A DNA stretch of 64,000 bases from an uncultured bacterium (GTDB taxonomy: Bacteria > Omnitrophota > Omnitrophia > Omnitrophales > Abzuiibacteriaceae): contig CAYLXA010000001.1 of NCBI GenBank assembly GCA_964387845.1, positions 192,001 to 256,000 of the forward strand. Reading direction: 5' to 3'. The notes under the pieces were generated by a model that was not told the DNA's origin, made no database searches, and saw only the letters and a program-made list of their open reading frames with translations. Both the position numbers and the translations under genes were made by a program. Below, piece by piece: positions 24,260-29,463 of the stretch (the stretch's first letter is position 1; each line of letters opens with the position of its first letter).

Positions 24260-27200
24260 TCAATCGTACCAGTTCATGTTGAATTTCTGCTTGCAGTGTT
24301 CGCACATCCAAAACTGGCGCTTGCGCATTTTCAAGCTTGAACCATACAGCATCAGCGGAACGCCGATTAAGACGGGAAGCAAAATGCATCCTATGATGAT
24401 TAACATGCGAGCAGTCGTTGAACGTATGTTTTCGGTATGCAAAAGGTCGATTTGCCTGGTTGCCTTGTTACAGCTCGGACAGCGGATCATATCCGGAAGC
24501 CCCTCGCCTTTTGTATCTCCCAAAATTCCAAGCGATTCAACGGCGTTGGCGCGTACCGTCGCATCGGGATCTGCGAGCAATTGGATCAAACCGAATGCCG
24601 CACGCTTAACACCGATCCGGCCGAGTGCTTGTGAACATTTAGCACGTACACTGGGTGCGGTATGCGTCAAAAGTTCCATTAATGGATCAACCGCTCTTTG
24701 ATCACCAATTCTTCCAAGCGCCTCAGCCGCATTGGCTTGGATCGTAGAATCCGTTTCTGACAGAGCTTGAATGAGCGAATCGGCCGCGCGCTGGTCGCGG
24801 ATTCTGCCCAATGCTTCGGCTGATTTTGCGCGAACTTCGGAATCATAATCCTTAAGCGATTGGATCAACGGAAAGCAGGCTGCCGGATCGCCGATTTTTC
24901 CCAAAATTTCAGCTGCTTTTGCCCTTAACGTATAATCCGGCTCTTTCAAAGAAGGGATCAAATACGGCACAACCGCATCCCCGAGCAGCGCCAAGTAATG
25001 CGCAACTTTGTTTCGGACATTCGGATCCGGATCTCTCATGGCATCTACCAAGCAAATAATGGCTTTTTTGCCTCCGATTTTCCAGACTACTTCGAAAATT
25101 TTGATCCGCATATTGTTATCCGCATCTTTGGACGATTCAATAAGCCCGTCCAACGCCGAACCTCCGATAGCGCCCAAAGCCCATGCCGCTTTTGCCTGCA
25201 CCGTAAAATCCGGATCTTTTCGGAGAATTTTAATTAAAGGATCGACTGCATGCTTATCTTTAATTTCGCCCAGCACTTCCACAACTTTCCCGCGAACTGC
25301 TGCTTCCGAATCCTTCAATGCCTCAAGCAAGTACTGAACAGCAGAACTACCTAAGGCACCGACCGCTTCTCCGGCCTTCGCGCGGACCAAATGGTTTTCG
25401 TCTTTCATGGCAACCACGAGCGAGCGGATGGCTCTCTTGTCTTTTATTTTCCCCAGAACTTCGGCTGATTTAGCTCGGACACTGGCAGATTTATCGTCCA
25501 ATGTCTTAATTAGAGGCTCAACCGCACGCTTATCGGCAATCTTGCCAAGCGCATCCGCAACTCTTGTCCGGACCGTTTCCAATTCGCTTTCCAGCGTATC
25601 TACCAGCGGATGAACGGCACGTTTATCGCCAATTTCACCCAAGCCCTCAATCGCTCTCGACTGCACATTTTCATCGCCTGTTTTCAAAACATCAATCAGC
25701 GCGAATGTGGCGCGTTTATCGCCGATTTTGCCTAAGATTTGCGCTGCCTGAGCGCGCAGACGAAGATTTTCATGTGAAAGTGCTTTAATGAGCGGTTCGA
25801 CGGCACGCGGGCCAATGAGGGCCAACACCCAGCTTGCTTGATTACGGACGTGATGATTGGTATCTTTCAGTGCGTTAATGAGCGGCTCGATAGCCTTCGG
25901 ATCGCCAATTTGGCCCAAGTGCTCCGTTGCTTTGAGCCGTACTTTTGGATCACTGTCCTTGAGGGCCTGGATCAGAAGCGGGACCACATCTTTTTCGCCG
26001 ATTTTGCCAAGCGTTTCGGCTGCTTTCGCGCGCACTTCCTGATCCGGATCGCCCAAAATTTGGATCACGGGATAAATCGCTTCTTTATTGCCTATGCGCC
26101 CGAGCGCTTCGGCTGATTTTGCCCGGACAATCGCATCTTTATCTTGAAGTATTTTAATAAGCGGCAGCACGGCCTTCTGGGTATTAATTTTTCCGAGTGC
26201 TTCGGCCGATTTTCCGCGTACGTAACGGTTTTCATCCTTAAGCGATACGATCAAAATCTCTACCGTCGGCTCACCGATACTCACCAAAGCCGTAACGGCC
26301 GAATTCCGGACACGTTCATTTTTGTCTTTAAGCGCTTGTATGAGCGCGGGAATCGCAGGAACGCCGATTTCGGCAAGCGCCCAGGCTATTTCCTCCCGCA
26401 CGTTGTCGTTTTTATCGTTTAATGCCTGGATGAGCGGTTCGATTGCTTTCGCATCGCCAATGCGCCCCAAAAATTCAGCTGCTTTATAGCGCACGGTTGA
26501 GTGGCCGTCGTGCAATGCTTGCGCAAGCGGCATTTCGGCTTTTCGATCCGCGATTTTGCCGAGCGCTTCAACTGCTTTGGTGCGTACGTTTTCATTAGAA
26601 TCCCTGATCGCCCGAATCAAAAGTTCGACGGGACTGATTTCCTGCAGCTTTTTAAGCGCCTCCTCGGCTTTTGATTTCACCTCACCGCTTGAGCGCTTAA
26701 CTAATTGCGAAATGGGATCGATGGCCTGCTGATCGCAAATCTTACCGAGCGCTTCCACTGCCGCTGCTTGGACATTTGGATCCGAATCATTCAAAGACTG
26801 AATAAGTTGTGGAACTGATTTTTGATCGGCGATTTGGCCCAAAGCCTCGGCGGCTCTGGCACGCACAATCCCGTCGGCATCTTTTATTAACAGCTGCGTA
26901 AGCGGAAAGCTGACTTTGCGGTCGCCGATTTTTCCTAAAATTTCGGCGATTTTGGCACGGACAATCGGATCTTTGTCTTTGATGGATGCAACCAAAAGCC
27001 CCATCGCGCTTCTCCCGATATTCTGAAGAACGACCATCGACTCATGCCGCACCCAATCATTTTCATCATTTAAAACACGAATCAGCGAGCCGACTGCCGG
27101 CCCTTCAATCAGGCTGAGCGCCCAGGCAGCTTCTTTACGGACATTCTCATTAGTGTCCCGTAGAATTTCAATCAGGGGCGGTACGGCCAAAGCACCCATG

Positions 27201-27583
27201 TTGCCGAGCATCTTGGCAGTTTTAGAACGCACGGTTTCATCTTTCTCGCGGCGCAAAAGGTGAATGAGCGGAAGAACGCATTCGGGGTCTTCGATAACGC
27301 CAAGCGCTTCAGCGGCTGCATCTCTCACTTTCGAATCAGTATCTTTCAGGCATTTAATCAAAGGTTCGACAGCCTGCCGGTCTTTTAGATGGCCTAAGAG
27401 TTCGGCAGCTTTTGTCCGGACATGTGTATCTTCATCTTTGAGCGCAGCGATAAAAACGGACACTTCACGCCGGTCGCCGATCGAAGCAAGCTGTTCCAAC
27501 GACTCCCTGCGCAGAGGCCACTCTTTGGCATGCTGAATACTATCAATCAGCTCATCAGCTGCTGTCCGTTGTGCGTTGGCCAC
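24260..27583 (-). CDS. Giant HEAT-repeat (PBS-lyase type) protein with C-terminal TM helix and split CxxC zinc ribbon
   Basis: About 30+ tandem ~31-aa units of the form VRxxAAEALGxIGDxRAVEPLIxxLKDxDxxV fill residues 1-1030. Then [10 protein letters not shown]...TM ([21 protein letters not shown])...CEHCKQKF. Confidence 0.85.
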   Translation of the reverse strand: [1107 protein letters not shown]

Positions 27584-27841
27584 AATGAATAAACTCCTTC
27601 CTGACGCGGATACACTTTTCTTGTGCGTCGAGAGATTTAAAGCCGGTATGGCTTAAAAATTGCAGCTAAAACGATCTACATAAAGTGTCCCATATTTTTT
27701 AAAACTTACAAAATAGGCACGGTAAGCATGATGCACGGTTTTGAGAATTGCCGGAACGGACAGGTAAAATGACTTCCTAAATGGTCAAAGGAAGTCTCGG
27801 GGCTAGAATTTCAAACGCGGGATAAAGCATTCGAGAAGAGC

Positions 27842-28847: not shown

Positions 28848-28917
28848 ACGATAGATTTAAAAATGTCTGCATACAATAAATCGGAATAATTGGAAATGCA
28901 AGCAGAAGATGAACGGT

Positions 28918-29463
28918 TCATTTGACGCGAGCCATCAAGCTTTCTACAATCCGAATCGACGGAAGCAGCCGCAAATTACTTTTTTGCTTAATAGCTTTGA
29001 GATACCGGCTCGTTTTTCGTACGGTTTTTGGCAATTGATTGGACGCAGCGGTAGAGACATCAAGTAAATTATCATGAATGTCGGCGAGCTTGATTAATTT
29101 GACTTCATCCGGCGCGTCCCGCAGCTGCTTGGCGTATGCCGCTTCGCACTCTTCTTCCGGCAAGCGCTTGTCCTTTGACATGAGCGCCGCCCACCGGGCA
29201 ACATCGCGCCCGAAACGCTCTTCAATATCGTCAAAATCTTTGTCGGTATCTTCGATCACGTCATGCAATACCGCGGCAGCCAAAATCTTTTCATCTTTAA
29301 CACCGAATACATGCCGTAAAGTCATGCAGACGCGGAACACATGCGCCGCATAAGGTGTTTTGTTGTCTTTGCGGTATTGCCCTTCATGAGCACGTGCCGC
29401 AAGCGAAATGGCCCGCGCTAAAAGTTCAAAATTACTTTTCGCTGATTTTGATTTACGCTTCAT
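28918..29463 (-). CDS. HD-domain small (p)ppGpp hydrolase-like protein (SpoT/RelA-type HD domain only)
   Basis: [20 protein letters not shown]...[13 protein letters not shown]...[12 protein letters not shown]...KLADIHDNL matches the alarmone-hydrolase HD signature; 181 aa with no synthetase domain. Confidence 0.65.

Follow-up and report, generated by a model that had tools for sequence, protein, structure and literature searches.

A giant HEAT-repeat protein with a cysteine-framed hydrophobic tail, a putative membrane anchor, in an uncultured Omnitrophota bacterium

What might a bacterium do with a single chain of 33 HEAT repeats, and do the genes that stand beside it share in its task? The question is raised by a 64,000-nt stretch of DNA from an uncultured member of the Omnitrophota (assembly GCA_964387845.1, contig CAYLXA010000001.1, positions 192,001 to 256,000), referred to here as the window and numbered from its first letter. 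At 24260–29463 of the window four genes lie in the same direction, all on the minus strand, with limits that in the list of open reading frames (ORFs) agreed exactly with those of a preliminary description made from the sequence. Read in the direction of transcription they encode a stand-alone HD-domain protein, a TPR protein, a CheY-like receiver and the giant HEAT-repeat protein, and that description had taken them for one signalling and scaffolding module, possibly tied to alarmone turnover. The HEAT gene product is probably a cytoplasmic alpha-solenoid that a hydrophobic hairpin, clamped by four cysteines, tethers to the inner face of the membrane, and that serves as an interaction scaffold.

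The ORFs of the window were annotated with Pfam and NCBIfam at curated cut-offs, and the repeat units of the 1107-aa HEAT protein were counted with an iterated repeat hidden Markov model (HMM). Pfam HEAT_2 matched the protein with 671 bits (E=5e-207, cut-off 27.7) and HEAT_PBS with 404 bits (E=2.5e-128, cut-off 20.9). The repeat HMM aligned 33 contiguous units over residues 2–1023, at spacings of 30–32 aa and with no interruption. These matches, the unit census and the solenoid predicted below confirmed the PBS-lyase-type repeats of about 31 aa that had been proposed. A 93-nt periodicity said to be visible in the DNA was also recovered: the identity of the gene with itself was 0.405 at lag 93, against an average of 0.253 (sd 0.021) for lags 1–399, and the self-identity of the protein at lag 31 was 0.28. 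The description of the repeats as near-perfect did not survive, as the units average only 37% identity to one another (maximum 68%) and Tandem Repeats Finder reported no DNA tandem repeat between positions 20000 and 34000 of the window. The periodicity of the array is real but degenerate.

Structure was predicted with AlphaFold2 (AF2) in two runs, one on the tail alone with a 34-sequence alignment and the other on the full-length protein. The full-length model had a mean predicted local distance difference test score (pLDDT) of 84.8. Residues 40–1022 were modelled as a solenoid, a continuous stack of paired helices with pLDDT mostly 85–94, in which 61 helices were listed, a few of them merged, so that about two fall to each repeat. 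The closest solved structures to the array were alphaRep proteins (E=1.8e-97 to 1e-18), artificial binders that were derived from the natural family of PBS_HEAT-like repeats (PMC3754942). With the alphaRep and PBS_HEAT family (PF03130, PF13646) the window protein shares the 31-aa unit, of consensus ..GDxRAVxPLIxALKDxDxxVRxxAAxALG.., and the stacking of two-helix units into a solenoid, which for the window protein is a prediction. It differs in having 33 natural units in one chain, whereas the solved alphaRep constructs have a handful, and in the joining of the array to a membrane anchor. Its units, little alike among themselves, are yet conserved position by position between orthologues. The N-terminus has neither a signal peptide nor a hydrophobic segment by sequence, which argues for a cytoplasmic location of the solenoid. 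No enzymatic domain was found in the protein.

Three NCBIfam models for bilin lyases or phycobilisome-degradation proteins were exceeded by the array, namely CpcE (353.6 bits, cut-off 330), NblB (310.9 bits, cut-off 300) and CpcF (224 bits, cut-off 220). It is nevertheless scarcely credible that the protein is one of these. The scores are sums over 10–15 short stretches, of which the best for CpcE spans profile positions 59–122 of 260, and membership was rejected for want of a collinear full-length match to a model of 200–270 aa. The HEAT protein exceeds CpcE, CpcF and NblB four- to fivefold in length, no phycobiliprotein gene was present among the annotated ORFs of the window, and the nearest relatives of MetH and Tpx were metagenome-assembled genomes labelled Planctomycetia and Verrucomicrobiota, not cyanobacteria. 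Because summed repeat matches can pass three "equivalog" cut-offs in this manner, giant HEAT proteins could be mislabelled as bilin lyases by automatic annotation. An assignment to anti-phage defence was rejected as well, since the PADLOC matches (HEAT-ARM_XIII and HEAT_CxxC_PD-DEXK) cover the HEAT repeats only and no nuclease or NTPase part is present.

No exact-sequence match was on record for the HEAT, HD or TPR protein. Orthologues of the HEAT protein were compared on two metagenome contigs, L002 with a close orthologue and L003 with a more distant one. The L002 protein is of equal length and 82% identical, with a dN (nonsynonymous divergence) of 0.118 between the genes and dS (synonymous divergence) saturated. 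The L003 protein (1112 aa, 52% identical) could be aligned over its whole length at the cost of no more than 9 gap columns, and 14 of the 33 units had their positional counterpart as best match, where about one would be expected by chance. Conservation between the window and L003 was highest in units 12–14, 18–19 and 33 and lowest at the N-terminus. The HEAT gene is real and is under purifying selection. Since the repeats of the orthologues are collinear and equal in number, the array is old and conserved in length, and is not a recent lineage-specific expansion, an alternative that the preliminary description had allowed for. Outside this small clade similarity is at the level of the repeat only (35% or less over most of the protein) and extends to thousands of giant HEAT proteins; more than 4,400 of 8,000 candidates scored at E<=1e-20. 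Giant HEAT proteins of the PBS type abound in bacteria and archaea, and for hardly any of them is a role known. The HEAT array is an ordinary member of this huge and functionally opaque class, and what is new is the C-terminal anchor and its fusion to the array.

Behind the array, two CxxC pairs had been noticed on either side of a hydrophobic stretch, and all three parts are in place (C1035-x2-C1038, M1060–L1084 and C1094-x2-C1097). Carriers of this tail were sought by an exhaustive profile (HMM) search of 1.84 billion representative proteins at E<=1e-3. This was used in place of a word-indexed search with a two-sequence anchor alignment, which had returned seven candidates, none of them scored. 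The census comprised 61 proteins. Five of them bear HEAT repeats (P0099 and P0121–P0124, P0121 being the C-terminus of the L003 HEAT protein). The remaining carriers, about 55, are proteins of 50–300 aa with unrelated N-termini and often with extra zinc ribbons, and their anchor is likewise C-terminal. P0099, which is 29% identical to the window HEAT protein and is encoded at a locus designated L001, was alone among the top 120 HEAT homologues in sharing the tail. A scan for the anchor pattern in species-representative genomes, a collection without this genome or its close orthologues, returned no orthologue or relative.

Invariance was judged on the alignment of 34 anchor sequences, in which C1035, C1038, C1094, C1097, G1065 and G1074 are invariant and P1076 is nearly so. 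None of the Pfam and NCBIfam models reached its threshold on any anchor member tested. The NCBIfam model TIGR04104 (cxxc_20_cxxc) matched 16 of the 34 members weakly, and the anchor profile retrieved only generic zinc fingers and transmembrane segments from the PDB. Judged by its conserved columns and its distribution, the tail is a genuine and portable domain that has so far escaped curation.

The two CxxC knuckles would bind one zinc ion. The zinc site would clamp both ends of a Gly/Pro-kinked, hydrophobic helical hairpin, which would dip into the cytoplasmic membrane without crossing it and so hold the solenoid at the inner face. Statistics on the core and its flanks were compiled from 58 members. 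On either side of the uncharged core the net charge is positive (means of +1.1 on the N-terminal and +1.8 on the C-terminal side), and the C-terminal flank, KMRKRQ in the window protein, is positive in 48 of the 58; such a flank fits a periplasmic C-terminus poorly. The motif G..P..G.P (G-x-P-x-G-x-P) occurs at mid-core in 45 of the 58. In both AF2 runs the core was broken at P1070–G1074 into helices of about 12–17 residues (1055–1071 and 1074–1087 in the full-length model, H30–43 and H49–60 in the tail model), flanked by short strands that bear the knuckles. The four jointly invariant cysteines could form a single metal site only with both knuckles on one side of the membrane.

The preliminary description had called the stretch between the cysteine pairs a transmembrane segment. 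A hydrophobic stretch is indeed there, and the proposed tethering of the scaffold to the membrane by a split four-cysteine element is supported, since all four cysteines are invariant in a tail that proved to be a conserved domain. The spanning helix itself fared less well. It would leave the HEAT array in the cytoplasm and place the last 23 or so residues, with the second CxxC, in the periplasm, and the two cysteine pairs might then act apart, for example in a periplasmic disulfide. An uncharged core of 25–32 residues would be long enough for one such span. This topology is unlikely all the same: it would put the more positive flank outside, contrary to the positive-inside rule, and would have to accommodate a Gly/Pro kink conserved at mid-core, a helix broken at that kink in both AF2 runs, and four cysteines that are invariant together. 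From the models and the sequence statistics the re-entrant hairpin is favoured over a membrane-spanning helix. Several points weigh on the other side. The AF2 confidence for the tail is moderate (pLDDT 64 for the tail alone and 40–77 in the full-length model), and the uncharged core, 25 aa here with a family median of 29, could cross the bilayer once. For the protein as a whole, a long repeat surface of conserved length would gather partner proteins at the membrane or arrange them there, a scaffold function that is a generic reading of the fold.

The proposed anchor resembles a domain of eukaryotic proteins. In LITAF a hydrophobic region of 22 residues lies between two cysteine pairs; the protein binds zinc and has been shown experimentally to be monotopic with both termini in the cytosol (PMC5142333). 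The domain is described as one conserved among eukaryotes, LITAF binds the head groups of phosphatidylethanolamine, and its insertion into membranes bears on Charcot-Marie-Tooth disease 1C (PMC5142333). The anchor shares with the LITAF domain (PF10601) the order of parts at similar size, that is CxxC, about 13–21 residues, a hydrophobic stretch, about 10 residues and CxxC near the C-terminus. The topology predicted from it agrees too, with both ends in the cytoplasm and zinc as a clamp across the embedded hydrophobic stretch. Unlike LITAF, the anchor has a conserved G..P..G.P kink in its core and a WYE end, is prokaryotic, and is joined to unrelated N-terminal modules.

The LITAF-type pattern of two cysteine pairs flanking a hydrophobic stretch near the C-terminus was present in the window tail and in 58 of 63 family members. 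PF10601 was the only Pfam model to align across the whole tail, with 15.6–16.1 bits, below the gathering score of 23.8. It was matched by 20 of the 34 anchor members at E<=0.1 (best E=1.2e-4), the displayed bit scores all being below the gathering score, and 2 of 10 tail shuffles in which knuckles and blocks were preserved matched it at E=0.002–0.003. The reverse comparison was made with a human LITAF sequence that scores 90 bits against PF10601; on its LITAF domain the anchor HMM gave 2.5 bits, a value reached by 177 of 1000 architecture-preserving shuffles. An hhalign comparison of the anchor family with human LITAF, with a reported probability of 99.8%, was set aside as an artefact because shuffled and reversed sequences scored alike. 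A fold search of BFVD with the tail model returned nothing significant, an iridovirus LITAF protein appearing at E=2.5. Homology of the anchor to the LITAF domain is unproven, as the shuffle controls removed the signal. On this analysis the tail is LITAF-like in architecture, and membership in the family is not established.

It is put forward tentatively, as something short of an even chance, that the anchor represents an undescribed prokaryotic family of monotopic anchors, in which a re-entrant hairpin with a Gly/Pro kink interrupts a four-cysteine zinc ribbon. Such a family would be the counterpart of the eukaryotic LITAF domain, by analogy or by very distant homology, and would act as a portable module by which giant HEAT solenoids, and many small zinc-ribbon proteins besides, are fastened to the membrane on its cytoplasmic side. 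If this is true, a portable and genetically compact monotopic anchor would be added to the bacterial repertoire, and a prokaryotic comparator for LITAF would be at hand. The anchor domain is a more useful finding than the HEAT array, and a HEAT subgroup with a defined location would be a concrete handle for partner finding.

Whether the neighbouring genes belong to the same device was considered from their products and from gene order in relatives. The HD protein matched Pfam HD_4 with 58.6 bits (cut-off 27.2); its only HD-family matches were HD_4 and the general HD model, and no synthetase domain was found. The motifs H..Q.RKD, HD..ED and KLAD..DN (KLADIHDN) are intact, and its best solved relatives in a PDB search were MESH1 of Drosophila and of human (E=3e-20). 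The SpoT-like HD domain without a synthetase that had been described can on these grounds be assigned to the Mesh1-type small alarmone hydrolases (PDB 3nqw, 3nr1 and 5vxa; XccSAH), which like it consist of a single HD_4 domain in about 180 aa. Stand-alone hydrolases of this type are a known class that acts independently on (p)ppGpp, (p)ppApp and NADPH (PMC9765508). In contrast to that class at large, an overlap with metH is particular to the window lineage. The overlap of 11 nt is conserved in L002 and suggests that the HD gene belongs to the metH transcription unit. The TPR membrane protein was found as described, with an N-terminal hydrophobic helix and TPR repeats (Pfam TPR_1, E=2e-32, four matched stretches).

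The order metH-HD-TPR-receiver-HEAT-DUF4442 is kept in L002, where the identities to the window proteins are 93% for the receiver, 91.5% for MetH, 80% for the HD protein and 72% for the TPR protein. Beyond the DUF4442 gene L002 has genes for a phosphatidylserine decarboxylase and a CDP-alcohol phosphatidyltransferase (10805..12171 of L002). The window lacks both at that place and has the region of a SWIB gene there, a difference of interest solely in view of the head-group binding of LITAF. L003 reads metH, an enolase-superfamily gene, DUF819, HEAT and YceI, with a MetH that is 74% identical to that of the window, and no HD, TPR or receiver gene is present at this locus. The reverse is seen in L092, the locus of a relative whose receiver is 92% identical to that of the window: the 3' end of an HD gene, a TPR gene and a receiver gene are followed after 50 nt by DUF4442, and the 3.6-kb HEAT gene is absent together with its upstream spacer. 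When 1..1723 of L092 is compared with 23908..29055 of the window, the 50-nt junction bears a weak likeness to the closing codons of the HEAT gene, AACTGGTACGATTGA, which hints at deletion rather than insertion. The TPR-receiver pair is kept in L002, L091 and L092, close relatives only, and L001 has neither an HD nor a TPR gene. Of 80 metH loci from species-representative genomes none carries any of the four genes nearby; the nearest of these loci are L058 and L004 (MetH 71–72% identical, Tpx 80% in L058), and in L058 tpx abuts metH.

A module in which the HD, TPR, receiver and HEAT proteins couple (p)ppGpp turnover to a membrane scaffold is by this comparison very improbable. The genes are co-directional and closely spaced in both the window and L002 in spite of saturated synonymous sites, and the Mesh1-type motifs of the HD protein are intact. 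Yet the four-gene order is kept in L002 only, is broken in L003, in L092 and in L001, and is absent from the 80 MetH loci, and the HD gene, of an independently acting class, overlaps metH and travels with it. The module is largely refuted, by the very lack of a conserved neighbourhood that the preliminary description had named as grounds against it, and neither the Mesh1-type hydrolase nor the TPR protein is more than an ordinary neighbour standing outside the HEAT device. The seeming link to alarmones arises by accident from how the genes are ordered here, and annotation should not take it up. The one adjacency that recurs in the relatives is that of a receiver gene, once, in L001.

The receiver of the window is a canonical single-domain response regulator (Pfam Response_reg, 88.5 bits, cut-off 30.2) in which D8/D9, D52, T81, F99 and K102-P103 are intact, and it is an orphan as had been stated, with no histidine kinase adjoining. 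The nearest identified kinase, which is also the only one identified among the annotated ORFs of the window, lies about 11 kb away at 15281..16744 on the plus strand. It is a PAS-HisKA-HATPase protein, 90% conserved in L002, has no adjacent response regulator and is a candidate partner of the receiver.

The adjacent receiver is the only candidate partner of the HEAT scaffold with any support. The HEAT-anchor protein could be the dedicated membrane docking target of this receiver, possibly with phosphorylation by an orphan kinase such as that at 15281..16744 controlling what is bound by the scaffold. The receiver gene is immediately upstream of and co-directional with the HEAT gene in the window and in L002. 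L001 offers an independent case in a distant lineage: the gene of the HEAT-anchor protein P0099 comes third in a tight run, after those of a dCache-GAF-PAS histidine kinase and of a receiver with a single domain, with gaps of 38–41 nt. All phospho-acceptor residues are present in the window receiver, and both it and the identified kinase are unpaired. There is also a precedent in the chemotaxis region of Halobacterium salinarum, where the HEAT_PBS protein OE2401F is needed for the output of CheY-P (PMC2666748). OE2401F consists of PBS-type HEAT repeats only and is encoded beside receiver-based signalling genes, and thus offers an example of a HEAT adaptor downstream of a single-domain receiver. 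It differs from the window protein in being archaeal, small and soluble, without an anchor; it bound CheD and CheF, not CheY directly (PMC2666748), and no che or motility genes are found near the window HEAT gene.

Such a pairing of receiver and HEAT protein is doubtful. It is seen in two lineages and contradicted by two others, L003 having the HEAT orthologue with no receiver nearby and L092 having the HD-TPR-receiver genes with no HEAT gene, so that the link between the two genes is not obligatory. The receivers of the window and of L001 are only 34% identical, a generic level, and the next-nearest receiver homologues (about 40% identical) stand in unrelated contexts, beside EAL, sigma-54 activator, pyruvate kinase and DHH genes and not beside HEAT genes. 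The receiver and HEAT genes are also parted by a gap of 235–258 nt (258 nt in the window), which has a conserved block of its own. This block, of about 43 nt and AT-rich, ATTTTGTAAGTTTTAAAAAATATGGGACACTTTATGTAGATCG, was kept in L002 while its flanks diverged, and it suggests separate control of the HEAT gene, for which it might serve as promoter or operator, a candidacy that derives from the alignment. No match to the sigma-70 consensus was found on the strand of the block, and the counts from a promoter and terminator scan equalled those expected from shuffles. The features of the locus, and those of a mobile element elsewhere in the window, are collected in Table 1.

Table 1. Positions of the features discussed, numbered from the first letter of the window
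Feature	Position	Strand	Description
DUF4442/hotdog thioesterase-like gene	23742..24212	-	47 nt downstream of the HEAT gene; Pfam
HEAT-anchor protein gene	24260..27583	-	1107 aa; GTG start; AAGGAG ribosome-binding site 10 nt upstream
Anchor domain, uncurated	24263..24508	-	Residues 1026-1107, about 82 aa: CxxC, Gly/Pro-kinked hydrophobic core, CxxC, WY(D/E) end
Second candidate zinc knuckle, CEHC	24293..24304	-	C1094, C1097; translation and invariant columns
Hydrophobic core	24332..24406	-	Residues 1060-1084, 25 aa uncharged; predicted helix-break-helix
First candidate zinc knuckle, CPSC	24470..24481	-	C1035, C1038; translation and invariant columns
Repeat array	24515..27580	-	Residues 2-1023; 33 alphaRep/PBS-type HEAT-like units, period 30-32 aa
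Conserved spacer block	27672..27714	-	Within the receiver-HEAT intergenic region; alignment with L002
Receiver gene	27842..28204	-	120 aa; single domain; Pfam Response_reg
TPR protein gene	28248..28847	-	199 aa; N-terminal hydrophobic helix, TPR repeats
HD gene	28918..29463	-	181 aa; HD_4 only; Mesh1-type small alarmone hydrolase (assigned from sequence)
metH	29453..33130		Upstream of the HEAT cluster's HD gene, with an 11-nt overlap between its stop codon and the start of that gene
Tyrosine integrase	37648..38877		Part of a probable integrative conjugative element
TraC/VirB4-like ATPase	48293..50773		Part of a probable integrative conjugative element
TraG/VirD4 coupling protein	55537..57360		Part of a probable integrative conjugative element
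DUF4062 + STAND NTPase protein	59005..62919		Part of a probable integrative conjugative element; 1304 aa; local GC 0.38-0.41 vs about 0.46

The probable integrative conjugative element extends over 37648..62919. An extracytoplasmic function (ECF) sigma factor is encoded at 19022..19669, within 19022..20285 on the minus strand, and is preceded, with overlap, by a Lys/Glu-rich protein of 219 aa that belongs to no Pfam family and has an N-terminal hydrophobic segment and a reiterated ENPE(K/R)F motif. The SWIB gene mentioned above (23018..23278, plus strand) encodes an 86-aa SWIB/MDM2-domain protein (Pfam, 107 bits), with a domain that among bacteria occurs mainly in the Planctomycetes-Verrucomicrobia-Chlamydiae (PVC) group, for example in Chlamydiae, and is not known to be common in others. 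As a possible taxonomic clue, and together with the nearest relatives of MetH and Tpx, uncultured and labelled first Planctomycetia and then Verrucomicrobiota, it makes an origin in the PVC superphylum plausible, though not established. At 8544..10370 on the minus strand a 608-aa fusion protein was found in which a DCC1-like thiol-disulfide oxidoreductase is joined to a lipase maturation factor (LMF1, LMF1_C), a family best known from animals.

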